64,000 bases of DNA from Actinomycetota bacterium. GTDB lineage: Bacteria > Actinomycetota > Actinomycetes > S36-B12. Under the pieces are notes generated by a model, which saw nothing but the letters and a program-made list of their open reading frames with translations, did no database searches and was not told the DNA's origin. The DNA lies in assembly GCA_005798555.1 (NCBI GenBank), contig SYJA01000024.1, positions 28,735 through 92,734 of the forward strand, given 5' to 3'. The position numbers and the translations under genes are program-made. Below, piece by piece: positions 14,319 through 47,743 of the stretch. The first letter of the stretch is position 1. Each line of letters opens with the position of its first letter.

Positions 14319-16274
14319 GTGTTTCCCAACCTGTTTAGCCCCCTTAGTCTAGGTTCGATCACCCTGAAGAACCGAATGTTCTCCTCAGGCCATGACACCG
14401 TGATGGCCGAAAAGGGTCGGGTTGGCGATCGGTTGATCGCTTATCAAAGCGCTCGCGCGGCCGGCGGGGTCGGGCATATCGTGCTTCAGGTCTCCGGGGT
14501 GCATGAGACTGCTGAGTACACGGACAGCGAGTTAATGGCTACCAGCGACGAAGTGATCCCCGGGTACCGCAAAATCGCGGAAGCAATTCATGCCCATGAC
14601 TGCCATGTTTTCGCGCAGCTCTTTCATGGTGGGCGCGAGGTGATGACCACTCCCGACGGGCTCCTAGGAGTTGCTTGGGCGCCATCGGCCATACCCAATG
14701 AGCGATTCCACGTGATGCCTCGGGCCTTGCACATCCCCTTGATCGAGGAAATCGTGCACGGCTTTGGCCTGACCGCGGCGCGAATGGCAACAGCTGGTAT
14801 CGACGGGGTTGAGATAGTGGCCAGTCACGGATACCTGCCTGCGCAATTCATCAACCCCCGTACCAATATTCGTGATGACATTTACGGCGGCTCGTTCGAG
14901 AATCGCATGCGCTTCACGCGCGAGGTACTTGACGCGGTGCGCGCCGCGACCCCCGAGGGTTTCGTCGTCGGCCTTCGTATCAGCCTGGGCGAGCGGGATC
15001 AGGACGGCCTGACGCCGCCTGAGTCAATGCAGGCCTGCCGGTACCTTGCCAATAACGTGGATTACCTCTCGGTGACCGCCGGCAGCAGCGCGACTTATTC
15101 GGGCAGCGTGCACATTGTGCCGCCCATGAACTACCCACCCGGCTATCTCGCGGACCTATCCTCGCAGTTACGCGAGACCGTTGATGTACCAGTCTTCCTT
15201 ACCGGTCGGGTTAATACCCCGGCTGAAGCCGAACGAATCATCTCCGCCGGCAAGGCAGATGCGGTGGCGATGACCCGTGCGCTCATCTGCGATCCACTAC
15301 TGCCCAATAAAGCCCAAGACGGCGAAACCGAAACTATCCGGCTGTGCATTGGCTGTAATCAGGCCTGTATCGGGCACTTCCACCTGGGCGTACCCATCTC
15401 CTGTATTCAATACCCTGAGAGTGGCCGCGAGCGCGAGTTCGGCAGTTTACCGATGACCGCCAACGTGAAACGGGTACTCATTGTCGGTGGCGGACCGGCC
15501 GGCCTGAAAGCCGCCGCAGTTGCGGCCGCACGTGGACATGACGTTGAACTCTGGGAAGCCGCGGCAACCCTTGGTGGTCAGACCCAGTTAGCGCAACTGC
15601 TGCCGGGGCGCGCTGAGTTCGGTGGGATTGTGCCAAATCTTGTCGGCGAGGCAACACGCGCCGGCGCACGAATTTCAACCAATAAAACCGCGGACTACAA
15701 ATTAATTACCGAGTATCAGGCCGATCTTGTGGTGCTCGCAACGGGCGCCTTACCCTATGCCCCGCCCATCGAAACCCTCGATGATGAGGTGAACATCCCG
15801 ATCTTCGATTCCTGGGAAGTGCTGCGTGGGGCCCAATTACCTGCTGGCGCCATTCTCGTCGCTGACTGGCGCGGTGACTGGATCGGCCTCGGGGTCGCCA
15901 CCTTGGTCGCCGAGCGTGGGCACCCGGTAACCCTTTGTGTTCAGGGTTGGACCGCTGGGCACGCGCTGCAGCAATATGTGCGCAAGGAAATGTTGGCTGA
16001 CGCCATCAGGCACCGGGTCAGTATCCGTGACGACCTGCGGATCCGCGGTATCTCCGGTGACACGGTCTACTTGGGCCACACGCTGACCGAAGAGGCCGTG
16101 GAGATATCTGGGGTCTCGGCAATTGTGCTGGCCACCGGCCACCGCGCTAATGACTCGCTCTTCCATGAACTTGCCGAACGCGGAGCAAATGTGCGCCTAA
16201 TTGGCGATGCACTCGCGCCGCGTACAGCCGAGGAGGCCGTATTTGATGGACTTCGGGTCGGCGCGGAGTTTTAG
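14319..16274 (+). CDS. OYE-like FMN / 4Fe-4S / FAD-NAD(P) oxidoreductase (2,4-dienoyl-CoA reductase, DgcA, StcD-type architecture)
   Basis: N-terminal TIM-barrel NADH:flavin oxidoreductase block (LKNRMFSSGH…HGYLPAQF). Cys cluster CIGCNQACIGHF…C. C-terminal VLIVGGGPAGL dinucleotide fold. 651 aa. Confidence 0.85.
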   Translation: MFPNLFSPLSLGSITLKNRMFSSGHDTVMAEKGRVGDRLIAYQSARAAGGVGHIVLQVSGVHETAEYTDSELMATSDEVIPGYRKIAEAIHAHDCHVFAQLFHGGREVMTTPDGLLGVAWAPSAIPNERFHVMPRALHIPLIEEIVHGFGLTAARMATAGIDGVEIVASHGYLPAQFINPRTNIRDDIYGGSFENRMRFTREVLDAVRAATPEGFVVGLRISLGERDQDGLTPPESMQACRYLANNVDYLSVTAGSSATYSGSVHIVPPMNYPPGYLADLSSQLRETVDVPVFLTGRVNTPAEAERIISAGKADAVAMTRALICDPLLPNKAQDGETETIRLCIGCNQACIGHFHLGVPISCIQYPESGREREFGSLPMTANVKRVLIVGGGPAGLKAAAVAAARGHDVELWEAAATLGGQTQLAQLLPGRAEFGGIVPNLVGEATRAGARISTNKTADYKLITEYQADLVVLATGALPYAPPIETLDDEVNIPIFDSWEVLRGAQLPAGAILVADWRGDWIGLGVATLVAERGHPVTLCVQGWTAGHALQQYVRKEMLADAIRHRVSIRDDLRIRGISGDTVYLGHTLTEEAVEISGVSAIVLATGHRANDSLFHELAERGANVRLIGDALAPRTAEEAVFDGLRVGAEF

Positions 16275-17729
16275 CTAGGCGACATTGATGGCGGGCCCAG
16301 GCCCAGCCGACTTAATGAGCCTGGCGCGGTCCTTGCTCCATGATTTGTAAGCGCGGTCGGTGGCCTCGCCAATGATCGATACCATGCGGTCTATTTCCTT
16401 CGCGCCAGAAACCAACGGGGGCGATAGCTGAATAACCGGTTCACCTCGATCGTCCAATCTGCAGAGCAACCCCAATTCGTCCATGTGCCCGGATAGTTCA
16501 TCGCGCAGGAGCCAATTTGCCTCTGCTTCGTCAAACATCTCACGGGTTTCACGATTCTTTACCAACTCGATTGCCCAGAAGAATCCGGCACCGCGGATAT
16601 CGCCAACGAGTGGGTTGGCGCGCAACTCCTGCAGCCTATTTTCAAAATACCCTTCGAGGGTGCGCACATTCTCGAACACCTGCTCACGGTCGTAAATATC
16701 CATGACCTTTAGCGCGATGGCAGTCGAAAGCGGGTGCCCACTGAAGGTTAGTCCGTGCATGTAGGTCACCGCTCCGGTCACAAAAGGCTCGGCAACCCGG
16801 TCATTCATGAGGACGCCACCTAATGGTGCATGGCCCGCCGTCGCCCCTTTGGCAAAAGTAATAAGGTCGGGCCGAGCGGCAAATCGCATCGAGCCAAACC
16901 ACTCACCGACCCGGCCAAAAGCGCTGATGGTTTCGTCGGCCACCAATAAAATCCCGTACCGATCGCATAACTCGCGCAGCCCGGACCAGTAGCCCGCCGG
17001 TGGCGTGAACGCCCCGCCGGAATTCTGCACCGGCTCGGCGATCAGCATCGCGATCTCGTCAGCACCTTCACGAATAATCGTCAGGTGAATTTCATCCAGC
17101 AACGACTTGGTGAAGGCGGCTTCATTCGCACCATCCGGGTGGCGATAAGCATTGGTGTTGCTGACGAAAGATACCGGGATCGGCAACGGCAGGAATGGCT
17201 CCCGACAGTTATCGAGTCCGGTGAGGCTGAGTGCGCCGAGTGAGGTCCCGTGATACGCCAGGTCGCGGGCAATTGCCTTTCGTCGCTGCGGTTGGCCATT
17301 GGCAATGTGCCATTGACGAACCAGTTTCCACGCGGCTTCAACTGCTTCGCCGCCACCGCTGGTGAGAAATAGCCTGGTCATGCCCAGCGGCTCGGCTGCG
17401 CGCGTTAACCGCTCCGCGAGATGTACTGCGGCCGGGTGGGTCAGCGACCAGTTCGGCGAATACACCATTTCCGAAAGTTGCTGCTGGGCTACAGCGCCCA
17501 CCTCAGCCCCGCAGGAGTGGCCGAGGTTAGTGCAGAAGAGGCCGGAGAGCCCATCTAGGTATCGGCGTCCAAAGGAGTCGATGACTTCGCAGCCGTCGCC
17601 GCGAACCATAACCCGGATCGGCCGGTCATCGAAGTCACTTAAATCAGTGAAATTCAAGAGCAGGTGCGCCCGCGCTGCATCTTGGTCCGCGCTAGCGCCC
17701 CGGCGCCGCTTGGTAAGCATTTCCCACAC
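16275..17729 (-). CDS. Class III (omega-type) PLP-dependent aminotransferase
   Basis: 484 aa. Aspartate aminotransferase fold type I, class III pattern (…LTSGGGEAVEAAWK…LVADETISAFGRVGEWF…FAKGATAGHAPLGG). The start is either GTG 17729 or ATG 17720. Confidence 0.9.
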   Translation of the reverse strand: MWEMLTKRRRGASADQDAARAHLLLNFTDLSDFDDRPIRVMVRGDGCEVIDSFGRRYLDGLSGLFCTNLGHSCGAEVGAVAQQQLSEMVYSPNWSLTHPAAVHLAERLTRAAEPLGMTRLFLTSGGGEAVEAAWKLVRQWHIANGQPQRRKAIARDLAYHGTSLGALSLTGLDNCREPFLPLPIPVSFVSNTNAYRHPDGANEAAFTKSLLDEIHLTIIREGADEIAMLIAEPVQNSGGAFTPPAGYWSGLRELCDRYGILLVADETISAFGRVGEWFGSMRFAARPDLITFAKGATAGHAPLGGVLMNDRVAEPFVTGAVTYMHGLTFSGHPLSTAIALKVMDIYDREQVFENVRTLEGYFENRLQELRANPLVGDIRGAGFFWAIELVKNRETREMFDEAEANWLLRDELSGHMDELGLLCRLDDRGEPVIQLSPPLVSGAKEIDRMVSIIGEATDRAYKSWSKDRARLIKSAGPGPAINVA

Positions 17730-17810: not shown

Positions 17811-18461
17811 CTATTTTTTCCGTCGACCCCCAGCGGGCCCGGTTTTTTCACCGGCTGGGGAGATCCCAAGCTCCAGTACCGCCGATTGCCACCACAGTTC
17901 AGTGAATTTGCCGGTCGTCATACCCGGCTCGGCCAGGGCCAGCTGGATCGCGAGGCCATCCATCAAGGCGGCCAACCGAAGGACCGAAGCTTTCGGATCG
18001 CTGGCGGCAAAAACCCCGGCGGCCAGTCCTTCGTCAACCACCTGGCGCAAGGCGCCCCGCCACCGGTTATCCAAGGACTCCCTAGCGGCGCGGGCACCAT
18101 CATCGCGGATGGCCCGCACCCACAGTTCCAGCCAGAGCCGCCAATCACCTACGGCCGGGCCATATCCGGCGCCGAGTTCAGCGATATGGCGAAGGCGCGG
18201 TACCGGGCCAACCACCTCACTTAGGTTGCGCTCCAATTCCTCATAGAACTCGTCCTCGAGCAAGGTCAAACTCGCCGCAAGTGCGCCGGCCAGCGAACCG
18301 AAATGATAGAGAACCAGGCCCTGCGAGGTACCGGCCGCCTCCGCAATGTCGGTGACCCTCGTCCCCGCGAACCCACGTTCGCGCACGACGGCGATGGTGG
18401 CGCGCAGGATCCGTCCGCGCCGCTCCTCAGGCGCTTTCGCGGCCAACGTCGCTGCAGCCAT
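17811..18461 (-). CDS. TetR-family transcriptional regulator
   Basis: N-terminal HTH ILRATIAVVRERGFAGTRVTDIAEAAGTSQGLVLYHF. 216 aa. Divergent from the acyl-CoA dehydrogenase operon. Confidence 0.9.
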   Translation of the reverse strand: MAAATLAAKAPEERRGRILRATIAVVRERGFAGTRVTDIAEAAGTSQGLVLYHFGSLAGALAASLTLLEDEFYEELERNLSEVVGPVPRLRHIAELGAGYGPAVGDWRLWLELWVRAIRDDGARAARESLDNRWRGALRQVVDEGLAAGVFAASDPKASVLRLAALMDGLAIQLALAEPGMTTGKFTELWWQSAVLELGISPAGEKTGPAGGRRKK

Positions 18462-18516
18462 CTAACTCCTTGTCGATACTTAGCTCCACCGAGCAGAAAT
18501 CTAACCCATGCGGGTT

Positions 18517-18534
18517 ATTGAACGGTTATTCAGG
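18517..18534. promoter_or_regulatory. ATTGAACGGTTATTCAGG, second copy of the TGAACGG-N-TTCAGG operator motif in the divergent TetR/ACAD promoter region
   Basis: Lies in the 119-bp divergent intergenic region, nested inside a larger inverted repeat CTAACC…GGTTAG (18501-18538). Confidence 0.5.
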
Positions 18535-18580: not shown

Positions 18581-19765
18581 ATGGCTACGGCCCCAGACCC
18601 GAGTAACCCCATGCACCTTGCTGAGTTAAGTGCGCGCGCGGCGATATTCGTCGACGAGGTGCTGATTCCGCACGAAGTTACGGCTGAGCTGGCTGGCGGC
18701 CCGTTGCCCGCAGCAACGCAGCGTCAAATAGCGCAGCGGGCGCTCGAGCATGGTTTACATGGTGGGCTGCACTTGCAGGAGCATGGTGGCAATAGCTGGA
18801 CGACTACCGAGTGGTTTCTCGTGGAAGAGCAACTTGGTCACTCGACTAATGGGGTCTCTTGGTATATCCCGAATGCATACAACGTCTGGAAAGCCGGCAC
18901 GCCCGAGCAAATCGAACGCTGGCTTAAGCCGGCACTTCGAGGTGAACTGCACGACGCCTATGCGGTAACCGAGGCTGATGCTGGCAGTGACCCTTCGGGA
19001 ATTACCACAACCGCCATCAGGTCTGGTGCCGGCAGGTGGTTACTAAATGGCGAAAAGTGGTTCGTAACGTTTGGGTCCGTCGCCAAGGTCATAGTGGTGA
19101 TGGCGCTGGCAGATGATGGCGGTCAGTTGTTGCCTACCCTGTTCGCAGTTCCGGCCGACGCACCCGGTGTTGAGATGATTGCTGACGTTCCTTTCACCCA
19201 CAACTACCCCCATGGCCACCCCACCATGCGATTCACCGACGTTGAACTCACCGACGCCGACATCCTCGGCGGTCTCGGTAATGGTGAGAACCTGCAGCGG
19301 CTTTGGTTCACCGAGGAAAGACTCGGGATTGCCGCGCGCTGCATTGGTGCGATGCAGCGACTAATCGAGGAGTCAGTTGACTGGGCTGCAAACCGCGAAC
19401 AAGGCGGTGCCAGGCTCATCGATCATCAAGGGGTTAGCTTTCCGCTGGCCGACAGCGCAGCAGATGCGGCCGCCGGGCGCCTGCTCGGCTTGGAAGTAGC
19501 CCGGTTGGCTGATGCCGGTGCTGACCCCAAACTGGTGCACGGCAAAGCGTCACTGGCGAAACTCTTTTGCTCGGAAGCGGCCGGCCGGTGCGCCGACCGC
19601 GTGGTGCAGATCTTCGGCGGTCGCGGGTACATGCGCACCACGGCGGCCGAGAGATTCTGGCGCGAACTTAGAGTCGATCGAATCTGGGAGGGTACCTCTG
19701 AGATCCAGCGCCTCGTGGTCGCCCGCTCACTTGAGCGTCGTGGCGTTAAGTCAATGCTCACCTGA
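18581..19765 (+). CDS. Acyl-CoA dehydrogenase family flavoprotein
   Basis: 394 aa. ACAD fold blocks (AYAVTEADAGSDPSG…, …FGGRGYMR…IWEGTSEIQRLVVAR). Confidence 0.9.
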   Translation: MATAPDPSNPMHLAELSARAAIFVDEVLIPHEVTAELAGGPLPAATQRQIAQRALEHGLHGGLHLQEHGGNSWTTTEWFLVEEQLGHSTNGVSWYIPNAYNVWKAGTPEQIERWLKPALRGELHDAYAVTEADAGSDPSGITTTAIRSGAGRWLLNGEKWFVTFGSVAKVIVVMALADDGGQLLPTLFAVPADAPGVEMIADVPFTHNYPHGHPTMRFTDVELTDADILGGLGNGENLQRLWFTEERLGIAARCIGAMQRLIEESVDWAANREQGGARLIDHQGVSFPLADSAADAAAGRLLGLEVARLADAGADPKLVHGKASLAKLFCSEAAGRCADRVVQIFGGRGYMRTTAAERFWRELRVDRIWEGTSEIQRLVVARSLERRGVKSMLT

Positions 19766-19782: not shown

Positions 19783-21801
19783 ATGGATATCTCACGGCTC
19801 ATTAACCCGTGCTCTATTGCCGTGGTTGGAGCGACCGATCGCCCCGGATCCTATGCGCACACCACCTTGCTTAACCTGATTCGAAATGGATATGCAGGAA
19901 CCGTTGTCGGTGTGCACCCAACTCGGCAAGAGGTACTCGGTTTTCGCTGCATACCTAGCCTTGCGGACCTAAGTGCGCCGGCAGCCGCGGTCGTGATCGC
20001 GACCCCGGCCGAATCGGTGCCGGGGTACCTCTTGCAGGCGCGCGAGCTGGGCTGCGGCGGCGCTGTGGTTTTTGCCGCCGGCTTCGCCGAAATCGGCAAT
20101 GACCTAGCCCAAGCAGATCTGATCTCGGCGGCCGGTGGCCTGCCGGTCATCGGTCCCAACGGCAACGGCCTGATATCCGTGCCAGCCAGAGCAGCGATGT
20201 GGGGGGATGCCGCCCAGCTACCAACCGAGGCAGGACCAATTGCCCTGATAACGCAGAGCGGCAATATCGGTGTCGTCCTGCTCGCCCATCGGCAAGGTCT
20301 CGGCCTGCACTCGATCTTCTCCGTTGGTAACTCCGCGGTGGTGGACACCGCGATGTTGATCGAGTCACTTGCCACCACCGATGGTGTCCGGGTCATCGGT
20401 GCCTACCTTGAAAGTGATGGCGAGGGGGCCAGGCTCGCCCGGGCACTTGCCAAGTGCGTACAAAACGATATTCGAGTGGTATTTCTAAAGGCCGGACGCA
20501 GCGAGCGCGGATTAATGGCCGGGGCGGCACACACGGCAGCGGTTGCCGGTGATCAAAGAGTTTTCGAGGCACTTATTGAAGAGGCCGGCGCAGTTCTTGT
20601 TCGAGAGCCGGTTGAACTGATCGAGACGGCACGCGCCCTAGCGATTGGTCGACGTGATGCACGCGGCGCGGCGGTTGTCACCTGCTCAGGCGGCGACGCC
20701 ACCCTCGCGGCGGACCTCGCCGATGACGCCGGGGCGATACTTGCCGACTTTGGCGCCCCGACGCTGGCGGCACTTGCCACCCTACTGCCCGAAACCGCGA
20801 CCGCGACCAATCCCCTCGACCACACTAATTTGGTCTGGGCCGACACCGAGGCCGTCACCGCAATCTGTGAAACTGTGGCCCTTGACCCGGGGGTTGGCCA
20901 TCTGATCTATGTGCAGGACCTACCGCCTGGGCTGCCCGCCGGCCCACGTGCCGAATGGGATGCCACCCGGGCCGGCGGGATTGCCGGCGGCGTGCGGGCA
21001 CAGCTTTCGACGATGCTGGCCAGTTCGATGCCCGGGCAGGAGCCGGATGATGCGGTCGGTGGGCTGGTCTCGGCGATGAAAGCGGTAGCCGCCCTCCAAC
21101 TGCCCGCACCAGATCCTGCGCGGCTACTGCGAATTTCCGAGTGCGCCAACCGGGCACCGGCCAAGGTGGGCAATCAGTACCTCGCCGAGCACTCGGCAAA
21201 GGAGCTACTCAGCGCCGCCGGGATCGCAGTTCCGAAAGCCAAAGTTGTTAGGGGTTCTGCGGCAGCAGCAGCGGCCGCCGTCGAAATTGGTTTCCCGGTT
21301 GCCGTGAAGCTGAGCGCACCCGGGCTCCTCCACAAAAGCGACATCGGCGCTCTGGCCCTTGGCTTGACCGACCCGGCGGCCGTTCACCAGGCGAGCGAAA
21401 AGATGCTGCAAATTGCGGCCCTCCCCGACGATCCCGAATTGTTAGTTGAGGCCATGGTCGACCCCGGTATCGAAATCTTCGTTGCCGCCCATCGCCTCGG
21501 CATCGTGCCCTGTGTTGTCGTTGGGCTAGGTGGGCTCTGGGCCGAGATTATGAATGACGTCGCGGTTATCCCGTTACCCACCGATAGCAATCGGATAGTT
21601 CGCGAAATTGGCCGACTTCGTGGTGCCGTACTGCTCACCGGCGGTCGCGGTCAACAGGGCCCTGCAATCCACGACTTGGCCCAACTCGTGGTCAAAACCG
21701 GAAATCTATTAATGGATGAGCACTGGGCGATGATCGAACTCAATCCCGTCATAGTTACTAACTCAACCGCAATAGCGGTCGATGCCGTTTTTTGCACCTA
21801 G
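19783..21801 (+). CDS. ADP-forming acyl-CoA synthetase (fused CoA-binding, ligase-CoA and ATP-grasp domains; acetate--CoA ligase family)
   Basis: N-terminal CoA-binding block SIAVVGATDRPGSY. Succinyl-CoA-synthetase-like middle domain. C-terminal ATP-grasp (…FPVAVKLSAPGLLHKSDIGALALGL…). 672 aa. Confidence 0.85.
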   Translation: MDISRLINPCSIAVVGATDRPGSYAHTTLLNLIRNGYAGTVVGVHPTRQEVLGFRCIPSLADLSAPAAAVVIATPAESVPGYLLQARELGCGGAVVFAAGFAEIGNDLAQADLISAAGGLPVIGPNGNGLISVPARAAMWGDAAQLPTEAGPIALITQSGNIGVVLLAHRQGLGLHSIFSVGNSAVVDTAMLIESLATTDGVRVIGAYLESDGEGARLARALAKCVQNDIRVVFLKAGRSERGLMAGAAHTAAVAGDQRVFEALIEEAGAVLVREPVELIETARALAIGRRDARGAAVVTCSGGDATLAADLADDAGAILADFGAPTLAALATLLPETATATNPLDHTNLVWADTEAVTAICETVALDPGVGHLIYVQDLPPGLPAGPRAEWDATRAGGIAGGVRAQLSTMLASSMPGQEPDDAVGGLVSAMKAVAALQLPAPDPARLLRISECANRAPAKVGNQYLAEHSAKELLSAAGIAVPKAKVVRGSAAAAAAAVEIGFPVAVKLSAPGLLHKSDIGALALGLTDPAAVHQASEKMLQIAALPDDPELLVEAMVDPGIEIFVAAHRLGIVPCVVVGLGGLWAEIMNDVAVIPLPTDSNRIVREIGRLRGAVLLTGGRGQQGPAIHDLAQLVVKTGNLLMDEHWAMIELNPVIVTNSTAIAVDAVFCT

Positions 21802-25075: not shown

Positions 25076-25076
25076 G

Positions 25077-34474: not shown

Positions 34475-34509
34475 ATTGGAATCCTAGGAACTCTTACGGG
34501 TCAGCGCAA

Positions 34510-37312: not shown

Positions 37313-37504
37313 ATGGCCCTATACACCTGCCCAAAGTGCAATATGTCCGTCAACACCACCTGTGGTGCATGCAGCGCTGACTTAGCCGATGCGACGCTCA
37401 CCAAAGACGACGGCTCAACCGTTGCGATTTCACAGTGCCCAAATGGGCACGGGAAAATCAAGTCTCCCCTTTGCTGCGGCGCTGATATGAGTTGCTCGGT
37501 TTAG
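37313..37504 (+). CDS. Cys-rich small protein (zinc-ribbon-like N-terminus, CC-containing C-terminus)
   Basis: 63 aa: YTCPKCNMSVNTTCGAC…CPNGHGKIKSPLCCGADMSC. It has 9 Cys plus 2 His and no family I can name. Confidence 0.45.
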   Translation: MALYTCPKCNMSVNTTCGACSADLADATLTKDDGSTVAISQCPNGHGKIKSPLCCGADMSCSV

Positions 37505-39545: not shown

Positions 39546-40519
39546 CACTACTGCAGTTCCGCGACCTCAGCGTTGACTACACCTCAAATGACGGCATCGT
39601 GCCTGCTGTTCGCGGTGTGACACTGGGTGTCGAAGCTGGTGAAATTCTAGGTATCGCCGGTGAGTCCGGGTGCGGCAAGACCACCTTGGCATCCACCGTG
39701 CTGCGCTTACTGCCCGATAGCGCGCAAGTGCGCGGCGAAGTCCTCCTTGATGATATCGATATCTTGACGATGAAGTGGGGCCCGCTACGTGCGGTGCGCT
39801 GGTCGCAGGCAGCCATCGTTTTTCAGGGCGCCTTGCACGCACTTAATCCGGTTCAGCGAATTGGTGATCAGATCGCGGAGCCGATTCGGCTACATCAGAG
39901 CGTGGCCGAAAAGCAGATCAATACCAGAGTGGATGAACTACTGACTCAAGTCGGTCTGCCTGCATCCCGGGCAAAGTCATACCCGCACCAGCTTTCCGGC
40001 GGGCAGCGTCAGCGGGTAATGATTGCGATGGCGTGAGCATGCAAACCCGCCCTGATCATCGCCGATGAGCCCACTACTGCACTTGATGTGATGGTGCAGG
40101 CCCAGGTACTTGAACTACTGACCGGACTCGTACGCGATCTCGGTACCGGGCCAGCTGGTGGCATGGGCATGATTCTCATCAGTCACGACCTTGGGGTGCT
40201 CGGCACTACCTGCGACCGCATTGCTGTTATGTACGCCGGGCAGGTCATCGAGTCTGGCCCGGCACTTGAGATCTTCGACAATCCAAAGCACCCTTACACC
40301 CGCGCACTTGCTGCCGCATTCCCGCGGGTCGGTGACCCGGCGGCTAGATACGCGCCCACCGGGCTGCCCGGTGATCCGCCCTACCCCGGTTACCTGCCTA
40401 ACGGCTGCGCATTTCACCCACGCTGCCCCATCGCCGCCCCGGCCTGCAGCCAGGGCTCCCCGGCCCTCGTCGAGGTGGCACCGCGCCGGATGGCCGCTTG
40501 TTTCGAGGTCGACAGATGA
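39542..40519 (+). pseudogene. Opp/Dpp D-type ABC ATPase interrupted by an in-frame TGA
   Basis: ATGA-coupled start (MTLLQFRDLSV). Walker A GESGCGKT and [14 protein letters not shown], then TGA at 40034-40036, then the same frame continues [18 protein letters not shown] (Walker B) … GCAFHPRCP. Confidence 0.85.
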
Positions 40520-41433
40520 TCATCTCGGCGCAGGATTTATCGGTTTGCTTCGGTGGCCGGGTGTGGGCAGTCGACGGAGTTGATCTTGACATACCCGCCG
40601 GTGAGATAGTCGCACTTGTCGGTGAGTCCGGCTGCGGTAAGACCACTCTCGCGCGCACGCTGCTCGGCTTGGAAAGACCGACTTCGGGAACGGTGTCCTT
40701 CGAAGGGAAACCACTAGCGTATTCGACAAAAGCGCTGAAGCAGTACCGGTCACAAGTGCAGTTGATCTTGCAAGATCCCCTCGGTGCGCTAAATCCAAGG
40801 CACACCGTCTACGACGCGGTGGCAGAAGGTTTGCGGGTGCAGAGCATACCCGGAGACGAAACTGCTCTAGTTGCAGATGCCCTCTCGCGCGCCGGTCTCA
40901 GACCACCGGAACGCTTCTTCATGCGCTTCCCGCATGAGCTATCGGGGGGCCAACGGCAGCGCGTGGTAATTGCTGGTGCGCTGGTACTAAATCCACGTGT
41001 ACTGATCGCTGATGAGCCAGTCTCCAGCCTCGATGCCTCGGTGCGCGGTGAGATTCTCAGTCTCTTGCTCTCACTTCGTGAGGAGTTGGGGCTGACGGTG
41101 CTAGTAGTAACCCATGACCTAGGCCTCGCATGGAATATCGCCGACCGGGTTGCGGTGATGTATCTCGGGCGCATCGTCGAAACCGGCCCGACAGCAGAGC
41201 TACTCACCGATCCGCAACACCCCTACACGAGGGCGCTGCTCTCGGTCGTACCGGATATTTCTCGGACCGAGCCGATCGTGCTGGTAGGCGAGGCACCGGA
41301 TCCAGCTCGCATCCCGGGCGGTTGCCGGTTCCATCCGCGCTGCCCTGAGATCCTGGAGCAGTGCGCTAACACTCCCCTGCCTATCCTCACCCCGTCCAGA
41401 GGTCACGTTGCCGCATGTCTGCGTGCCCAATAA
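40516..41433 (+). CDS. Opp/Dpp F-type ABC ATPase
   Basis: ATGA-coupled start at 40516. [29 protein letters not shown], and a C-terminal GCRFHPRCP oligopeptide-type extension. Confidence 0.9.
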   Translation: [305 protein letters not shown]

Positions 41434-41494: not shown

Positions 41495-43885
41495 GTGCAG
41501 TCATTTCGCGTCGTAGTCATTGGCGGGGGAATAACCGGCACCAGCGTGCTCTACCACTTAGCTCTTAAGGGCTGGACCGATATCGCACTCATCGAACGCA
41601 CCGAACTCACCGCGGGATCCAGTTGGCATGCGGCTGGCGGGTTTCACGCCATCAATAACGACACCGTCGTCGCCGCGCTGCAAAGTTACACCATTTCCAT
41701 GTACCCAAAAGTGGCCGAGGAGAGCGGCGTCGACATCGGTCTGAAACTATCCGGCGGCATTGAACTCGCCAGCACCCCAGAACGAATGCGCTGGCTCAAG
41801 GCCGAGGTCGCTTGGCATGAAATGATGGGGCACGAGGGCGTGCGCCTGATGGACGTTGACGAAATCGTTGACCTCGTACCAATTGTCAACCCAGAGGGTT
41901 TGACCGGCGGGCTATTTGATCCTGACGAGGGCAACCTCGACCCAAATGGCGCGGTCTATGCCTATGCCGGTGCCGCTCGTAAACGCGGCGCCACGATCAT
42001 CACCCATAACCGCGTGCTCGGCATGAAGCGCACCCGCGCCGGGTGGGAACTCGAAACCGAGCAGGGCCCGATCCTGACCGAACATGTGGTGAACGCCGCC
42101 GGCATGTGGGGGCGCAAGGTTGGCAACATGGTTGGCATCAACCACCCGGTCACCCCGATCCTGCATCACTACCTGGTCACCGAAGACGTACCGGAGATCA
42201 TGGCTATCGATTGGGCGATGCCGGCTGTCACGGATCTTGAAGGCTGGACTTACCTGCAACGTGAACAAAATGGCGCGGTACTTGGTGTCTACGAATCAAA
42301 TCCCGCGCACTGGCATCCCGAAGGTGCTCCGTGGGATTACGGCGCAAAATTGCTGCCGCCAGATATCGACCGGATTGCCACCGAGTTGGAGATCGGGTTC
42401 GCACGCTTCCCGGCCCTTGCCAGCGCGGGCATCAAGCGCTGGGTTCATGGCGCATTCGCCATTACCCCGGACGGCAACCCCCTTGTTGGTCCGGTGCGCG
42501 GTCTGCCCGGGTATTGGGCGGCCGCAGGTGTCATGGCCGGGTATTCGCAAGGCGCCGCGGTCGGTCTAGCGATCGCGAACTGGATCGTCGACGGTGACCC
42601 TGGCGATGATGTCTATGCCATGGATGTGGCCAGGTTCGGTGATTGGGCCGCATCGGACGACTACCTACTGGCCACCACTTACCAGTTTTATGCTCGACGA
42701 TTCTTGACCACCTACCCGCATGAGCAACTACCGGCCGGACGACCGCTGCACACCACACCGGCGTATGCGGACCTCAAGGCCGCAGGTGCCCAGTTCGGCG
42801 CCACCTGGGGCCTGGAGGTGCCCCAATTCTTCGGACCTTTGGACTTCGAGCATATGCCGTCACTGCAGCGGGACAATGCCTTCCCGCATATCGCACGCGA
42901 GGTGGCGGCTGTTCGAAATGACGTTGGCGCATATGAAACCGGCGTCTACTCCCGCTACCAGATCAGTGGTCCCGGTGCCGCCGCGTGGCTCGACAACCTG
43001 CTTGCCGGGCGCATTCCCGCAGTCGGTCGCATGGGGCTCACGCCGATGCTGCATCCAAAAGGCACCCTCATGGGCGACCTATCAGTTACCCGCCTGGCGG
43101 AGGATCGCTTCTGGGTTATCGGCTCCTACTACCTCCAAGAATGGCACCAGCGCTGGTTCACCGAGAACCTCGTCGATGACGTGACGATCGAGAACCTCTC
43201 CGATGCCTGGCTCGGTTTCGCGGTTTCTGGGCCCCGGTCACGTGATGTGGTAGCACATTTGACCGGCCAAGATATGTCGACTTTCAGGTTCATGGACGCT
43301 CGACTGATCGATGACATGCTCAGCGACGGCATGCTCATTGCGCGAATGTCACTTGCCGGCGAACTCGGCTATGAATTGACAGTTCCTGCAGACAAGCAGG
43401 CTGAACTTTGGCGCCGGCTCGCTGGGCTCGGTGTCACCCCCATTGGCGACAGAGCAATCGATAGTTTGCGCATTGAAAAGGGCTTCGGTATCTGGTCCGC
43501 CGAATTCACCCAGGCATATACCCCCGGGGAGACCGGCCTAGATCGTTTCATCGACTGGGACAAGGGCGACTTCATCGGACGCGAGGCCGCGCTGGCGGAA
43601 CGGGCTCGCGGTGCCGCAAGGCAGTTGGTGACACTGGATCTCGGTGCTACCGAGTCTGATGCGGTGGGCGACGAACCGGTCTGGTTGGGTGCGCGAGTCG
43701 TCGGTATCGTCACGTCTGGCTCCTACGGCCACCATGTCGGCAGCAGCCTGGCCCTCGCCTTGGTCGACACTGAGGTTGTCGAAAGCGGTGCGAAGGTCGA
43801 GGTCTCGGTAATCGGTGAACGCCAACTCGCCCGGATCCTCACCGAACCCGCCTACGACCCCAGCGGCTCGAGGATGCGCGGCTAG
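41495..43885 (+). CDS. Dimethylglycine/sarcosine dehydrogenase-like enzyme (DAO-type FAD domain fused to GcvT folate domain)
   Basis: VVVIGGGITGTS dinucleotide fold. SSWHAAGG (covalent-FAD His context). C-terminal aminomethyltransferase domain (…RMSLAGELGYELTV…LRIEKGF…). 796 aa. Confidence 0.85.
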   Translation: MQSFRVVVIGGGITGTSVLYHLALKGWTDIALIERTELTAGSSWHAAGGFHAINNDTVVAALQSYTISMYPKVAEESGVDIGLKLSGGIELASTPERMRWLKAEVAWHEMMGHEGVRLMDVDEIVDLVPIVNPEGLTGGLFDPDEGNLDPNGAVYAYAGAARKRGATIITHNRVLGMKRTRAGWELETEQGPILTEHVVNAAGMWGRKVGNMVGINHPVTPILHHYLVTEDVPEIMAIDWAMPAVTDLEGWTYLQREQNGAVLGVYESNPAHWHPEGAPWDYGAKLLPPDIDRIATELEIGFARFPALASAGIKRWVHGAFAITPDGNPLVGPVRGLPGYWAAAGVMAGYSQGAAVGLAIANWIVDGDPGDDVYAMDVARFGDWAASDDYLLATTYQFYARRFLTTYPHEQLPAGRPLHTTPAYADLKAAGAQFGATWGLEVPQFFGPLDFEHMPSLQRDNAFPHIAREVAAVRNDVGAYETGVYSRYQISGPGAAAWLDNLLAGRIPAVGRMGLTPMLHPKGTLMGDLSVTRLAEDRFWVIGSYYLQEWHQRWFTENLVDDVTIENLSDAWLGFAVSGPRSRDVVAHLTGQDMSTFRFMDARLIDDMLSDGMLIARMSLAGELGYELTVPADKQAELWRRLAGLGVTPIGDRAIDSLRIEKGFGIWSAEFTQAYTPGETGLDRFIDWDKGDFIGREAALAERARGAARQLVTLDLGATESDAVGDEPVWLGARVVGIVTSGSYGHHVGSSLALALVDTEVVESGAKVEVSVIGERQLARILTEPAYDPSGSRMRG

Positions 43886-44703
43886 AAGTAGCCACGGACT
43901 AAGTCCCTCATAAAGGGATTCATGATGTCTTGGGTATGGCCGTAGATCGAGCAGTGGCCCATGCCCTCAAAGAGGTGGAATGTTGCTCCGGGCGCGAGTG
44001 CCGCAACTTCTTCGCCGTCTTGGGGCACCGCCTGCACGTCCTGGTCAAATGCAATTACGTGCATGGGCACCATGCAGGTCTTCAGCTGCTCGCGCTGGTC
44101 GAAGAGCACGCACGGCTCCCATTGCGCAATCAGTGAATCCTCCGCGGTGTCAGTCTCGTAGTACTCGAGGAGTTCATCGCGCAGCTTCGGCCAAAGCACC
44201 GGGTCGCCCAGAACGCGGGCCGGGTAGTACATCGCGGCGTAATGGATGACCGCCATCATGCCGTCAAGGCGGTTACCCGCACGACGCCATTCGATTTCCG
44301 CCATCTGGTAATCCCAGGTCCAGCCCCGGCTCACCGCACCGGTGCCCATCGTGATCACGCACGCGATTAGGTCAGGTCGATCTATCGCCACCTGCTGCAC
44401 GATGCCGCCCCCGAACGACAACCCGATGATTGCCACCGGCGGGGTGCAGACCTCCTCGATCAGGTCGACCACATCTTGCGAAAAGTCAGCAACCGTCCAC
44501 GGCAGCGGTTGCTCTGAGGTGGTCTGGCCGACCCCGCGGCAATCGAAGGTGGTGTTGCGGAACTCACCCTCGAAATACGGCACCTGGTAGGCATCCCAGG
44601 ACCCGATGGTGCCGCCGGCACCCGAAACCCAAACGATGTCAGGTCCGTCGCCAACCTGCTTGTAGTGAATGCGTGCGGAGCGGCCCTCGACGAACTGCCC
44701 CAT
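43882..44703 (-). CDS. Alpha/beta-fold hydrolase
   Basis: 273 aa. Nucleophile elbow GLSFGG and a C-terminal His (GMGHCS). Confidence 0.8.
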   Translation of the reverse strand: MGQFVEGRSARIHYKQVGDGPDIVWVSGAGGTIGSWDAYQVPYFEGEFRNTTFDCRGVGQTTSEQPLPWTVADFSQDVVDLIEEVCTPPVAIIGLSFGGGIVQQVAIDRPDLIACVITMGTGAVSRGWTWDYQMAEIEWRRAGNRLDGMMAVIHYAAMYYPARVLGDPVLWPKLRDELLEYYETDTAEDSLIAQWEPCVLFDQREQLKTCMVPMHVIAFDQDVQAVPQDGEEVAALAPGATFHLFEGMGHCSIYGHTQDIMNPFMRDLVRGYF

Positions 44704-44706: not shown

Positions 44707-46659
44707 CTACTCGCGGTCTTCGCTGGTCGCAGACCGCCGCATCCGCAGCAACAGCACCACGACGATGACTATCGCCAGGGCGGCAACCAGTCCAATGATC
44801 AGACCGGTGCTGTTGCCACCGGATGCGGCCGCTGGTTGCGCTGCGGAGTCGGTGCCACCCGCAGACGGACTCGGCGCGGCGCTAGCCCCCGGCTCAGTAC
44901 TTGGGGCGGCTGATTCCGCGGCACTGGCAGCTAAAACCGGCTCCACGGCAAAGTGCGACCACGTGCCCCACTGATAGATCAAGGTACCGGTGTCCTTTGG
45001 TTGCTGCACCCATCCGGTGAACCGATCATTGCGATATGCCTCAAGGCCATTGGCGTAGTAGGTGATCATGTAGACCGCATCGTCGTACAGCATTTGCTCC
45101 ATGCGCTTGACGATCTCCTGGCGCGCAGCGAAGTCGGTCTCCTGCGCCTGTTGATCAAAGAGCTTGTCGTACTCCGGATTGCAGTAGAAGGAGTCAGACA
45201 AGTTGGCATAGATCGTGCCATCTTCCTCGTAGGATCGATTACCGCAGGTGAATGTGGAGAGCATGTAATTAGGGTCGGGCTCAACACCCCAGCCCCACTC
45301 GAACATGTCGAAGTTACCTTGGCCGACTATCTCGTAGAGTGCATCCTCACTCACACCCTTGAGCTTTACCTCGACACCAATATCCTTGAAGTAGGCCTGC
45401 ACGAACTCCGCTGACTTCTGCGAACTGGAGTCATCGGACTCGGTGCGATAAAGCAGGCGGAAGCTCAACCTGTTGCCGTCGGCGTCAGCGCGGACACCGT
45501 CATCGCCCAACGGGAACCCGGCCGCGTCAAGTAGCTGCCCGGCTTTGGCCGGGTCGTACCCGAATGGGTTCACCGGGTCTAGATGCCACTGCGGGTAGAG
45601 CGGCGGGATAACCGTGGTACCCGGTTGACCTTGGCCATCCAAGACCCTGTCGACGATCGCCTGCCTGTCGATCGCCCAGCTCAAAGCCTGGCGAATCGCC
45701 TTGTTCTTCAGCAGCGGATTGCCATCGCCAATCGGGGTGCCATCGGCAAGTGCCGCACCGCTGTTGAAGGCGACCTCACTGTAACTTGCCGGGGTTGAGG
45801 AAACCGTGGTGATTTCGGGGATCCCTTGCAGGGATTCATAGACGCCGAGATCCAAACCATGCGCTAGGTCGATCTCCCCGGACTTAAGGGCTTGCCCAAG
45901 TGCATCCGGGTTGTTGAAGACTTTGTAAATAATCTCATCGACCGGCCGCTTACCGGCGTACCAGTTTGGATTCGCCTGGAATCTGGTGAATTGACCGGGC
46001 CGGTGCTCCACCATGACATAAGGACCCGAACCCACCGTGGGTGACTGGGGGGTGCCGATATTGGTGTACTTGCGCACCTCCTTGCCGTCTATCGACTCCC
46101 AGATGTGCTTGGGGAGGATGAATACGAAGAGATGGTCCATCACCGGATTCGGCTTGGATATTTCGATTCGTACTGTTAGCTCATCAACCGCTTCGGCGCC
46201 CACCATGCTGGTGACATACGAGCCGAAATTGGTCTTCTCATACTTGCCGTTGATAATCCGGTTGAAGGTGTAGGCCACATCTTCTGCGGTTATCGGCACG
46301 CCATCACTCCACTTCATCCCGGGGCGTAGCTTGTAGGTCCAGGACTTCTTGTCGGCCGACTCCTCCCATGATTCGGCAAGCCCCGGGACGATCGAGAAAT
46401 CATCGGCCGCGTATTGCGTCAACGTCGGGTATTGCAGGGTGAAAGTCTCATACGCGAGCGATGACAGCCCGGTGAAGGGGTTCGCCGAGTCGATATCCTC
46501 GCCAATCCCGATTGTTAATACCACCGGCTCGTCGGCCGCGGCAATCGGCGAGACTGCTAGCGGTAAACCAACTAGGACAGCCAGAAAACCGGCGGTGATA
46601 ATGCGGATGCGCGACACCTGCACTCCTAATGGGTTGAACTGGGGTTGGCTAAGACTCAA
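44707..46659 (-). CDS. ABC transporter substrate-binding protein, family 5 (peptide/nickel/opine type) with C-terminal transmembrane anchor
   Basis: Sec signal (…SPIAAA/DEP) and an SBP_bac_5-like body. An Ala/Ser/Pro linker and a hydrophobic helix LIIGLVAALAIVIVVVLLL follow, then RMRRS. Confidence 0.85.
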   Translation of the reverse strand: MSLSQPQFNPLGVQVSRIRIITAGFLAVLVGLPLAVSPIAAADEPVVLTIGIGEDIDSANPFTGLSSLAYETFTLQYPTLTQYAADDFSIVPGLAESWEESADKKSWTYKLRPGMKWSDGVPITAEDVAYTFNRIINGKYEKTNFGSYVTSMVGAEAVDELTVRIEISKPNPVMDHLFVFILPKHIWESIDGKEVRKYTNIGTPQSPTVGSGPYVMVEHRPGQFTRFQANPNWYAGKRPVDEIIYKVFNNPDALGQALKSGEIDLAHGLDLGVYESLQGIPEITTVSSTPASYSEVAFNSGAALADGTPIGDGNPLLKNKAIRQALSWAIDRQAIVDRVLDGQGQPGTTVIPPLYPQWHLDPVNPFGYDPAKAGQLLDAAGFPLGDDGVRADADGNRLSFRLLYRTESDDSSSQKSAEFVQAYFKDIGVEVKLKGVSEDALYEIVGQGNFDMFEWGWGVEPDPNYMLSTFTCGNRSYEEDGTIYANLSDSFYCNPEYDKLFDQQAQETDFAARQEIVKRMEQMLYDDAVYMITYYANGLEAYRNDRFTGWVQQPKDTGTLIYQWGTWSHFAVEPVLAASAAESAAPSTEPGASAAPSPSAGGTDSAAQPAAASGGNSTGLIIGLVAALAIVIVVVLLLRMRRSATSEDRE

Positions 46660-46684: not shown

Positions 46685-47743
46685 TCAGTCCTTGAGCCGA
46701 GCCCGCAACCAACTTCTGATATCCAGTGAGTTGTCTTCCATTGGCCCATACCAACCGCCTCGGAAATAACGTGATGACATCCCGCGCTGGACCGCTTCGC
46801 AGATGCTCCAGTCCTGAAGATTGACTAGATCCCACAGATCCCCGGCATCGGCAGGGTTAAAGGTCGACCTCGCTGCCTCAATGGGTGCAAAGAGTAGTTC
46901 GCAAACGACGCGGGTGCTATTTGCCGAAAGCGGTACGAGTACATAGGAGGCCGCATGCTCGGCCGACAGACTCAGCATTAGGTTCGGGTAGATCAATTCG
47001 CCCTTGTGCCTTACCCGCTCATGCTCATCAAGATCTGGGAATGGAGCGCGATCGGTCGTGCCACTCATCGTGAAAGTCCAAGCGCCCTCGCGGTGCGGGA
47101 CTCCGTCCACCCACGGGATGTCAATCCCCCCACCGCCAAAGGCGGGCACCAGCCGGCAGAGCTCAGGATGTACCGGGCCGCAGTGGTAGCACTCGTTGTA
47201 ATTCTCGGCGATTACTTTCCAATTGGCCTGGACGTCATAGGTGAAGCGCAATCCAACGACGAGTTCGGCCAGCGGATAACGCTTTACCCGCTCGGGGACT
47301 GCGCCGAGTTGCACCAGCAGCGGCTCGCTTGGGGCTTCGGCCAGCCAAAGCCAACCGCCCCATTGCGCAGCCGCCAGCGCCGTCAATGCAAACTCTGCCG
47401 GGTTGACGTCTTCGGTATGCGGTGCGTGCAGGAGTGATCCATCTAAGGCATATGTCCAAGAGTGGTACGGGCACCGGAGTGCCTTCATTTCGCAGGGCGT
47501 ACTGTCAATCGGCAAGATCTGCGAACCGCGATGGCGGCACACGTTGGCGTGTGCGTGCAAGGTGCCGTCATTGGTGACAATGATGGACTCACCGTAGTAA
47601 TCAATCACTGCCGCGCGCCCAGCCTGGGTGAGGCCGAGTTCATCAAGGCGCCCGATACAGGTCCACTGACCGCGCAGCATGTCGCGCTCGCGCAAAAAGG
47701 TCTCCGGGTCCACGTAGTACTCACGCGACAGGGCGGCTTCCAT
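46685..47743 (-). CDS. Rieske [2Fe-2S] non-heme-iron oxygenase, alpha-subunit type (paralog of 21782-23083)
   Basis: CRHRGSQI…CPYHSWTY Rieske motif and an AENYNECYHCGPVHPELC block. 352 aa. Confidence 0.85.
   Translation of the reverse strand: MEAALSREYYVDPETFLRERDMLRGQWTCIGRLDELGLTQAGRAAVIDYYGESIIVTNDGTLHAHANVCRHRGSQILPIDSTPCEMKALRCPYHSWTYALDGSLLHAPHTEDVNPAEFALTALAAAQWGGWLWLAEAPSEPLLVQLGAVPERVKRYPLAELVVGLRFTYDVQANWKVIAENYNECYHCGPVHPELCRLVPAFGGGGIDIPWVDGVPHREGAWTFTMSGTTDRAPFPDLDEHERVRHKGELIYPNLMLSLSAEHAASYVLVPLSANSTRVVCELLFAPIEAARSTFNPADAGDLWDLVNLQDWSICEAVQRGMSSRYFRGGWYGPMEDNSLDIRSWLRARLKD

Follow-up and report, generated by a model that had tools for sequence, protein, structure and literature searches.

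Which compounds are degraded by a dense group of demethylase-type genes in an actinobacterial genome, and from where do its two Rieske oxygenases receive their electrons? These questions were raised by positions 14319-47743 of a 64,000-nucleotide stretch of an Actinomycetota genome (contig SYJA01000024.1, positions 28,735 to 92,734; the whole stretch is called the window here). An earlier note had proposed that this region encodes five kinds of oxidative or folate-dependent N-demethylase-type enzymes and no recognisable reductase for the Rieske proteins. Glycine betaine, carnitine, gamma-butyrobetaine, choline derivatives, and other quaternary amines serve as major carbon and nitrogen sources and give rise to trimethylamine. 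What is known of their aerobic breakdown comes almost entirely from Proteobacteria, where the oxygenase and reductase genes are adjacent. We found that the region contained two conserved catabolic modules, with ~10 kb of unrelated genes and pseudogenes (26997-37209) between them. We regarded it as reasonably probable that these modules degrade one or more N-methylated compounds of the quaternary ammonium (betaine) type and that the redox partner of the Rieske oxygenases is encoded elsewhere.

The two Rieske oxygenases and their gene neighbourhoods

Genes were called from a listing of open reading frames (ORFs), and every window ORF of at least 100 aa was scanned against Pfam and NCBIfam; an extra Pfam scan covered 101 leftover ORFs (40 aa or longer) outside the assigned genes. 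Exact-protein look-ups matched the window, at 99.9-100% identity, with a 356-kb metagenome contig in ENA (ERZ27257035 k141_241848) and with contigs in two NCBI assemblies. At the positions given in the earlier note, all five enzyme types proved to be real ORFs with strong family matches. Module I contained, in this order, a cupin gene, an OYE/Fe-S flavoprotein gene, an aminotransferase gene, a TetR gene, an operon for an acyl-CoA dehydrogenase (ACAD), an acyl-CoA synthetase, the first Rieske protein (Rieske1) and a cupin, a GcvT gene with a CrtI-like flavoprotein gene, and a second TetR gene. Module II encoded a Dpp-type ABC importer, an enzyme resembling dimethylglycine dehydrogenase (DMGDH), an alpha/beta hydrolase, the second Rieske protein (Rieske2), and a CocE/NonD hydrolase. 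The ACAD, the NDP-forming synthetase, both cupins, and the CocE/NonD hydrolase were absent from the earlier gene list. The two TetR regulators (BetI-type) and the class III aminotransferase (Aminotran_3) of that list were present, and of its two ABC importers only the Dpp-type one lay within 14319-47743, the Liv-type importer being located at 55723-60570.

Rieske1 (21782-23083, +) and Rieske2 (46685-47743, -) were alpha subunits with Rieske and Ring_hydroxyl_A domains and were 38% identical to each other. Both carried the previously noticed CRHRG...CPYHSW and ENY-x-ECYHC-x3-HPELC blocks. In an alignment of 12 sequences (the two proteins and ten relatives), the Rieske [2Fe-2S] ligands C116/H118/C137/H140 were invariant, with CRHRG...CPYH in both proteins. 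The iron ligands H237/H242 (E-C-Y-H-C-x3-H) and D365 were also conserved and formed a 2-His-1-carboxylate set, in which the carboxylate was assigned from the alignment only. Moreover, E234 and C235-x-x-C238 were invariant (ENYQECYHC in Rieske1, ENYNECYHC in Rieske2). A bridging Glu with Cys-x-x-Cys beside the iron site is the hallmark of Group V and is shared with Stc2 and CntA (CntA E205/C206/C209; Stc2 C202/C205) (PMC10952381).

The top PDB relatives of both proteins (E 1e-40 to 1e-27, 142-96 bits) were the stachydrine demethylase Stc2, the carnitine monooxygenase CntA, and 3n0q, a Ruegeria protein. Namely, Stc2 was the best or near-best match for Rieske1 (3vca and 4qup, E 2e-40), and CntA, which shares the Group V fold and motifs, was the top match for Rieske2 (6y8j, E 2e-28). 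In contrast, aromatic ring-hydroxylating oxygenases in the PDB reached at most 71 bits (E 1e-18 or weaker), so the aromatic-type assignment that would have spoken against a role in demethylation was not borne out. The window contained no ORF of the Ring_hydroxyl_B or HcaF-like type that could encode a beta subunit. On the NCBIfam model for the equivalog of GbcA, a glycine betaine monooxygenase (NF058607, cut-off 670 bits), Rieske1 scored 172 and Rieske2 132 bits. Neither protein was a GbcA equivalog, and therefore specific substrate assignments were not justified; pipelines that annotate such genes as 'gbcA' over-assign function. Homologs of Rieske2 at 64-66% identity were found in Mycolicibacterium and Longivirga, and the closest reference Rieske protein belonged to a plasmid cluster of Priestia megaterium (35% identity to Rieske1, 33% to Rieske2). 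Judging from these sequence relationships, Rieske1 and Rieske2 are putative new subfamilies of the Group V (quaternary-ammonium) oxygenases. The nearest named relatives were metagenome-assembled genomes labelled Candidatus Nanopelagicales bacterium (89% for Rieske2, 77% for Rieske1), which indicates that the host is an uncultured, Nanopelagicales-related actinobacterium of freshwater type and not a proteobacterium.

The ACAD gene (18581-19765, +; Acyl-CoA_dh_N/M/1) was the first gene of the Rieske1 operon. It was followed by a fused alpha/beta NDP-forming acyl-CoA synthetase (19783-21801, +; CoA_binding_2, Succ_CoA_lig, ATP-grasp_5), by Rieske1, and by an EutQ-like Cupin_3 gene (23080-23424, +; E 6e-19). 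Since these genes were separated by gaps of 17 nt or overlapped (the 3' end of the synthetase gene ran 20 nt into the Rieske1 gene, and the cupin start overlapped the Rieske1 stop), they constitute one operon in which ACAD and synthetase are translationally coupled to Rieske1. The ACAD had no NCBIfam equivalog; its top model was acryloyl-CoA reductase (160 bits, cut-off 640). Divergent from the operon was the gene for TetR regulator 1 (17811-18461, -; TetR_N, TetR_C_6), which scored 64 bits on the BetI model, under the cut-off, and kept its position in relatives. A repeat tool applied to the regulatory regions gave no convincing inverted repeat shared as a TetR operator; a short palindrome, TAACCCatgcGGGTTA, was seen by eye at ~18502-18517. 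Next to TetR 1 was the class III (omega-amine) aminotransferase gene (16275-17729, -; Aminotran_3 E 1.5e-77), whose location beside the TetR-ACAD-synthetase-Rieske unit was conserved in the related loci L001-L004 and L012.

Conservation was followed in 80 loci with relatives of Rieske1 (up to 10 kb of flank each, one genome scanned per GTDB species), mainly from Actinomycetota but also from Gemmatimonadota, Acidobacteriota, Verrucomicrobiota, Chloroflexota, and others. The unit of aminotransferase, TetR, and ACAD-synthetase-Rieske genes occurred on five independent actinobacterial contigs with 63-78% Rieske identity. The next gene there encoded a DAO-family oxidase, a cupin, or a protein without assigned role, and nearby were a polyamine-type ABC importer, often a DMGDH-like gene, and, in the L001/L003 contigs, the OYE flavoprotein gene. 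Literature searches on the ACAD-synthetase-Rieske arrangement returned nothing relevant. This operon is an uncharacterised arrangement within a system that is not of a new kind, and the aminotransferase-TetR-ACAD-synthetase-Rieske unit is a testable candidate for a new betaine degradation route. Rieske2, in turn, was found with a family 5 binding protein and a second Rieske gene in seven genomes (L028, L039, L041, L046-L048, L051). The CocE/NonD (S15) hydrolase was conserved with Rieske2 in five related loci and was a usual member of this set.

The co-location of these genes is not due to chance, because the modules recur in distant genomes. Nevertheless, we weighed the case that unrelated pathways, for example of polyamine, amino acid, or peptide catabolism, happen to lie together and that methylated amines are not substrates of the Rieske proteins. 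The ~10 kb of unrelated genes and pseudogenes between the modules would fit such a case, as would the scores of all specific family models, which were under their cut-offs, and the transporters, which were of Dpp (peptide) type here and Pot-like (polyamine) in relatives rather than OpuA, ProX, or BCCT. However, the catalytic signature of Group V was conserved, both regulators were BetI-type, and Rieske genes recurred with DMGDH-like, GcvT, and CrtI-like flavoprotein genes across phyla. We therefore considered a merely incidental grouping quite improbable.

Electron supply of the oxygenases

No window ORF of at least 100 aa matched Fer2, FAD_binding_6, NAD_binding_1, Flavin_Reduct, Reductase_C, or a small Fer4 protein in Pfam. 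Similarly, the 101 leftover ORFs held no reductase or ferredoxin; the only matches were a WrbA-like gene (52822-53454) and the Fer4 domain of a 2-oxoacid:ferredoxin oxidoreductase at the window end. Candidates for small ferredoxins from regular-expression scans of Cys motifs were rejected as out-of-frame or antisense junk. As phmmer seeds we used Stc4 and Stc3 (pSymA), YeaX (Escherichia coli), PDR/VanB (Rhodococcus pNit), a PDR-like ORF (Gordonia), HcaC, HcaD, and a TrxR-like FNR, with E limits of 1 (PDR, Stc, and YeaX) and 1e-3 (HcaC, HcaD, and FNR); zero window ORFs were matched. Thus, Pfam, motif scans, and seeds agreed with the earlier note that the window lacks an FNR-type reductase and a small ferredoxin. 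A dedicated reductase just outside the window had also been envisaged. The flanks on the identical contig (~8.5 kb upstream, ~5 kb downstream) contained no reductase or ferredoxin gene: upstream there were Moa genes and a CoxSML-type molybdoenzyme that has a Fer2_2 subunit of its own, and downstream IorA and two amine oxidases.

The same was observed in relatives. A PDR-type reductase gene was present within 10 kb in one of the 80 related loci (Gordonia jinhuaensis, L022), an HcaD-type reductase in none of them by phmmer, and dicluster Fer4 proteins in three. The motif search of these loci gave 40 candidates; the best 10 were checked singly in Pfam, where only the Gordonia ORF was real, and the 28 of the others that were located in these loci, scanned as a set, yielded three Fer4 proteins and nothing else relevant. 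Two HcaC matches were discarded as Rieske domains fused to unrelated proteins, and a screen for GR-type Rossmann motifs (229 ORFs, mainly spurious) was replaced by the HcaD seed. An adjacent PDR-type reductase, as expected for Group V, was thus missing from the window, its flanks, and 79 of the 80 loci; this is a matter of gene organisation and does not exclude membership in the group. A linked reductase is typically missing in this Rieske clade, not in this genome alone. Missing linked reductases are common among Rieske systems and would hardly surprise specialists.

A second electron carrier was also missing. Among the window ORFs of at least 100 aa, Pfam revealed no gene for an electron-transferring flavoprotein (ETF), which the ACAD and DMGDH-type enzymes would require. 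Since neither a reductase nor an ETF was encoded in the window, the simplest reading is that the whole island relies on electron carriers encoded elsewhere. Most likely, then, the electron supply of the Rieske oxygenases is encoded elsewhere in the genome, and the partner would probably be shared. Reconstitution of these oxygenases needs a surrogate or separately identified redox partner.

The earlier note had left a choice between electrons from elsewhere and an unconventional partner inside the cluster, naming the OYE protein as one candidate. This protein (14319-16274, +; Oxidored_FMN E 4e-61, Pyr_redox_2) has the proposed OYE/4Fe-4S/FAD architecture of the DgcA/StcD type. Namely, it combined an OYE TIM barrel (FMN), a C-x2-C-x3-C-x11-C motif whose four Cys aligned with the 4Fe-4S cysteines of FadH, and C-terminal FAD/ADP-binding domains, as in FadH, trimethylamine dehydrogenase (TMADH), DgcA, and StcD. 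In the PDB its first match was FadH, the 2,4-dienoyl-CoA reductase of E. coli (1ps9, 249 bits), followed by 2-naphthoyl-CoA reductase (NCR, 225), histamine dehydrogenase (195), and TMADH (167), and it scored 581 bits on the NCBIfam model for mycofactocin-type OYE_2 (cut-off 793). At the position that would correspond to the covalent-FMN Cys of TMADH, its sequence apparently read H-D and not H-C. The protein may oxidise an amine or reduce an enoyl-CoA made by the ACAD.

Homologs of the OYE protein at 52-56% identity were encoded on plasmids of Shinella, Rhodococcus, and Paracoccus aminophilus. These were always beside cupins, in contexts of amine, hydroxyproline, and succinate-semialdehyde or aldehyde catabolism. 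In module I, a Cupin_2 gene (13915-14292, -; E 7.5e-15) was divergent from the OYE gene. More generally, small cupin genes were consistently observed beside members of this OYE/Fe-S subfamily in both Actinomycetota and Alphaproteobacteria (L097, L098, L101, L102), with three cupins in the Shinella cluster.

The other flavoprotein in question was the CrtI/amine-oxidase-like FAD protein (FADox; 23489-25075, -; Amino_oxidase, DAO, NAD_binding_8), which was 528 aa long by the gene call on the identical contig. Its start adjoined the stop of a stand-alone gene for a GcvT-family, folate-binding aminomethyltransferase-like protein (25077-26276, -; GCV_T and GCV_T_C), of which it is the downstream partner; this substantiated the GcvT-flavoprotein pair proposed at 23489-26276. 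The top NCBIfam model of the GcvT protein was the C-terminal domain of trimethylamine N-oxide (TMAO) demethylase (221 bits, under the cut-off). In the sources, FADox was named only 'phytoene dehydrogenase-like' or 'NAD(P)/FAD-dependent oxidoreductase'. Next to the pair was the gene for TetR regulator 2 (26326-26988, +; TetR_N, TetR_C_6). FADox homologs were located within 10 kb of 33 of the 80 related Rieske loci, which made them the commonest specific neighbour, often directly upstream of the Rieske gene.

Could one of these flavoproteins be the electron donor, with the OYE protein or FADox acting as an NAD(P)H-to-Rieske reductase? The absence of a classical reductase from nearly all related loci and the frequency of FADox would be compatible with it. 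Moreover, with an NAD(P)H-type domain, FAD, 4Fe-4S, and FMN, the OYE protein contains a complete internal electron wire, and OYE genes were found near the module in the L001/L003 contig family. However, FADox contains a single Rossmann motif and neither an Fe-S motif nor a separate NAD(P)H domain, and its pairing with GcvT, together with its two paralogs in other phyla, fits substrate-oxidising demethylases. The OYE gene was near a Rieske gene in one of the 80 loci and was absent from L012, its other homologs were in clusters without a Rieske gene, and the 54% identical homolog on Rhodococcus rhodochrous pNit coexists with a dedicated PDR/VanB reductase. For the latter reasons a role of the OYE protein as the Rieske reductase was not supported, and an in-cluster donor of either kind seemed very improbable to us. 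An electron supply encoded elsewhere was thus favoured.

Abundant uncultured actinobacteria therefore carry distinct Group V oxygenase subfamilies that are almost never beside a reductase gene, and the operon contexts differ: some include synthetase and ACAD, some the split flavoprotein/GcvT demethylase, and some ester or amide hydrolases. In addition, we observed operons of GcvT, FADox, FADox, and Group V Rieske genes, without a reductase gene, in Gemmatimonadota, Acidobacteriota, and Bacteroidota (L058, L066, L071, L076, L077, L080, L081, L086, L087; at positions ~5-11 kb). One oxygenase, two amine-oxidising flavoenzymes, and a folate-binding protein fit the full removal of three N-methyl groups, and therefore this operon appears to be an uncharacterised, complete tri-demethylation cassette.

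A candidate route and known systems

The fused FAD oxidoreductase/folate-binding demethylase of module II (41495-43885, +) had been described as DMGDH-like, and its domains agreed. DAO, FAO_M, GCV_T, and GCV_T_C were all in one chain (E 1e-59 to 1e-13), an architecture identical to that of DMGDH, dimethylglycine oxidase (DMGO), and the gamma-N-methylaminobutyrate oxidase of pAO1. It matched the rat and human DMGDH structures over residues 6-787 (480 bits, E 1e-142) and Arthrobacter DMGO with 268 bits. Unlike for DMGDH and DMGO, no ETF gene was near the window's gene. The pair of GcvT and FADox looks like a split counterpart of DMGDH with another flavoprotein fold; we found no characterisation of such a pair in the sources searched.

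The remaining genes of module II point to uptake and hydrolysis. Two Dpp/Opp-type ABC permeases and two ATPases (37720-41433, +; Pfam) preceded the DMGDH-like gene. On the opposite strand were an alpha/beta hydrolase (43882-44703, -; Abhydrolase_6/1) without an NCBIfam equivalog, a family 5 (peptide/opine/nickel-type) solute-binding protein (44707-46659, -; SBP_bac_5 E 1.6e-97), Rieske2, and, upstream of Rieske2, a CocE/NonD-family (S15) ester/amide hydrolase (47760-49601, -; Peptidase_S15 and PepX_C), which scored 194 bits on TIGR00976, over the cut-off of 66. The first ATPase gene (39542-40519, +) contained an in-frame TGA at 40034-40036, just upstream of Walker B (RVMIAMA*ACKPALIIADEPT). 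On the otherwise 99.9% identical ENA contig this codon was TTA (Leu) and the gene was intact (325 aa); the TGA is a strain-level nonsense single-nucleotide polymorphism or a sequencing error.

We propose the following route for these genes. A Group V Rieske oxygenase, Rieske1 in module I and Rieske2 in module II, would hydroxylate a carbon beside the quaternary nitrogen, so that the first methyl group would be lost as formaldehyde or a C-N bond cleaved. A quaternary nitrogen has no lone pair and cannot be oxidised by flavin amine oxidases, and therefore the oxygenase would be expected to act first. Flavoenzymes that transfer the one-carbon unit to tetrahydrofolate might then demethylate the resulting tertiary and secondary amines. 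FADox with the stand-alone GcvT and the fused DMGDH-like enzyme are candidates for this step, and the OYE/Fe-S flavoprotein is a possible further one. The class III aminotransferase would remove the primary amine, and the synthetase and ACAD, co-transcribed with Rieske1, would activate and oxidise the carbon skeleton. Module II would supply Dpp-type uptake and two hydrolases, and an imported ester or amide conjugate would be split first. Module I would be controlled by the BetI-type TetR repressors, and ETF, like the redox partner of the oxygenases, would come from genes elsewhere.

Several features point to the kind of substrate. The presence of a class III aminotransferase suggests that the end product is an omega-amine and not glycine. 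The synthetase and ACAD would fit a carboxylic acid skeleton with three or more carbons, whereas an ester or amide conjugate is suggested by the hydrolases and the peptide-type importer in module II. Reasonable candidates would be omega-trimethylammonio acids (gamma-butyrobetaine, beta-alanine betaine) and choline or carnitine esters, which we regard as leads and not as results. On the other hand, a number of points weighed against the proposed route. The scores on specific equivalog models all stayed far under the cut-offs (GbcA 172/670, ACAD 160/640, acyl-CoA synthetase 278/1200). The roles given to ACAD and synthetase derive only from their co-transcription with Rieske1. The OYE protein, nearer to enoyl-CoA reductases than to amine dehydrogenases by its sequence, may belong to an acyl-CoA arm. 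The two modules, being separated by unrelated genes and pseudogenes, may serve different substrates, and one ABC ATPase of this sequence had the nonsense codon described above. Finally, the reductase encoded in trans is a predicted one, since the searches covered the window and its flanks.

Among characterised systems, GbcA/GbcB of Pseudomonas and BmoA/BmoB likewise rely on an alpha-only Group V oxygenase. It takes one N-methyl group off a quaternary amine, steps of the DMGDH and sarcosine oxidase types come next, and BetI/TetR-type regulation is encoded nearby. In contrast to GbcA/GbcB, the window had no adjacent GbcB-type reductase gene, and both Rieske proteins scored far under the GbcA cut-off. 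Moreover, glycine betaine catabolism needs no ACAD or NDP-forming synthetase, both of which were co-transcribed with Rieske1 here. The earlier comparison with the betaine, dimethylglycine, and sarcosine demethylation of proteobacteria therefore held for the enzyme families, by domain matches and the Group V signature, but not for the host, which is actinobacterial, nor for GbcA equivalence. In the Stc2/StcD system (Sinorhizobium meliloti pSymA), a Rieske step precedes an OYE/Fe-S flavoprotein step, and StcD shares the architecture of the 14319-16274 protein. However, Stc2 was only 29% identical to Rieske1 and 24% to Rieske2, stc4 (reductase) and stc3 (flavin-reductase-like) directly follow stc2 and neither had a window homolog, and no S. 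meliloti pSymA record was among the 30 best plasmid matches to the window OYE protein.

A plasmid cluster of Priestia megaterium (L100, 5269-19067) encodes a DMGDH-like enzyme, SolA, a Group V Rieske protein, a BCCT transporter, and gcvPB/PA/H/T, and looks like a pathway from glycine betaine to glycine. Like the window it had no PDR reductase; in its place was a TrxR-like NAD(P)/FAD oxidoreductase, a hint that Group V oxygenases of Gram-positive bacteria are served by reductases of other types.

CntA/CntB (YeaW/YeaX) provides a different model. Carnitine is the substrate of CntA, and E. coli YeaW accepts gamma-butyrobetaine as well (PMC8364193). Such omega-trimethylammonio acids would suit the aminotransferase, CoA ligase, and ACAD context of the window. 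Unlike a demethylase, CntA releases trimethylamine (TMA). YeaW was 34% identical to Rieske1 and 28% to Rieske2, and yeaX, directly after yeaW, had no window homolog. The Rhodococcus rhodochrous pNit cluster, known from annotation only, is an actinobacterial parallel with betT, a Rieske gene, succinate-semialdehyde dehydrogenase (SSADH), PDR/VanB, aminobutyraldehyde dehydrogenase, OYE, and cupin genes. Its OYE protein was 54% identical to that of the window, its cupin was related to the window's Cupin_3 protein (E 9e-12), and its Group V Rieske protein was 31% identical to Rieske1 and 30% to Rieske2. It differed from the window in having its own PDR/VanB gene (3 kb from the Rieske gene), aldehyde dehydrogenases, and a BCCT transporter, and in lacking the ACAD, synthetase, GcvT, and DMGDH-like genes.

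Accordingly, we asked whether the oxygenases of the window could cleave the C-N bond as CntA does, giving trimethylamine and an aldehyde, with the CoA ligase and ACAD taking the skeleton and the flavin/folate enzymes the methylamines. Both Rieske proteins scored as well against CntA as against Stc2, the set of Group V Rieske, PDR, SSADH, and OYE genes on pNit fits a conversion of gamma-butyrobetaine to TMA and succinic semialdehyde, and the OYE architecture is common to TMADH. A gamma-butyrobetaine-CoA ligase is also known, the ATP-dependent BcoAB of S. meliloti (PMC8364193). A rhizobial plasmid homolog of the synthetase (33% identity) was in an unrelated context, and a link to S. meliloti BcoAB/BcoC was rejected. 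However, the window had no aldehyde dehydrogenase gene by Pfam, the DMGDH-like enzyme and the aminotransferase need a skeleton that still bears nitrogen, the closest reference Rieske protein was that of the glycine-betaine-to-glycine type cluster of Priestia, and the OYE protein was nearer FadH than TMADH. On balance, C-N cleavage of this kind appeared unlikely, and stepwise demethylation was preferred.

A bolder combination of these observations can be formulated, although we see it as a long shot. A large, mainly non-proteobacterial Group V clade (Actinomycetota, Gemmatimonadota, Acidobacteriota, Verrucomicrobiota, and others) would have no canonical PDR reductase and would use an unrecognised partner such as FADox; jointly with this, the ACAD/synthetase/Rieske unit would be a CoA-dependent route for omega-trimethylammonio acids, in which the oxygenase would act on or next to a CoA thioester.

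Intervening genes and other parts of the window

Between the modules (26997-37209), both strands were occupied by a class I fructose-bisphosphate aldolase (over the curated cut-off), a choloylglycine-hydrolase-family gene, an amine oxidase, two proteins without family match, a frameshifted pterin-binding gene, a split EamA gene, a zinc alcohol dehydrogenase, and a metallo-beta-lactamase-fold gene. At 33597-34474 (-) and 34510-35423 (-), the pterin-binding gene (dihydropteroate synthase- or methyltransferase-like) was frameshifted into two ORFs, and the neighbouring EamA transporter gene was split. Both look like pseudogenes. In the 0.5-kb gap upstream of the Dpp permeases there was a 63-aa ORF (37304-37501, +) with about nine Cys (MALYTCPKCNMSVNTTCGACS...CPNGHGKIKSPLCCGADMSC), which had no Pfam match and contained an imperfect 16-nt inverted repeat at 37426-37459. 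It could encode a small metal-binding protein or not be a gene.

Downstream of module II, the segment 52396-54345 was gene debris with a chromate-transporter fragment, the disrupted WrbA-like gene, which encodes a flavodoxin-fold NAD(P)H:quinone oxidoreductase (52822-53454), and an AraC-type helix-turn-helix fragment. This decay is real and not an assembly artefact, because independent assemblies (Logan, NCBI) gave the same short gene calls. The window end (61410-64000, -) and the sequence beyond it (L008, 10815-14572) encoded a two-gene indolepyruvate/2-oxoacid:ferredoxin oxidoreductase (530 and 722 aa), followed by two amine-oxidase-family genes. The organism therefore has ferredoxin-dependent metabolism, though no ferredoxin gene was nearby.

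The genes at 30502-32022 (-) and 49912-52395 (-) encoded large proteins of 506 aa (no family match) and 827 aa (weak Big_1), and at 10933-12711 (+) there was a gene for a GH18 chitinase, which is secreted and has two CBM2 domains and Pro/Thr linkers. These three genes were unrelated to the modules. At 7765-8268 (-), a CsoR/RcnR-type metal-sensing repressor (Trns_repr_metal, E 1e-20) was beside a Cys-rich ORF of 56 aa (CSTCKKITYTGCGEHVEQV...CDC), and the two may form a small metal-responsive unit.

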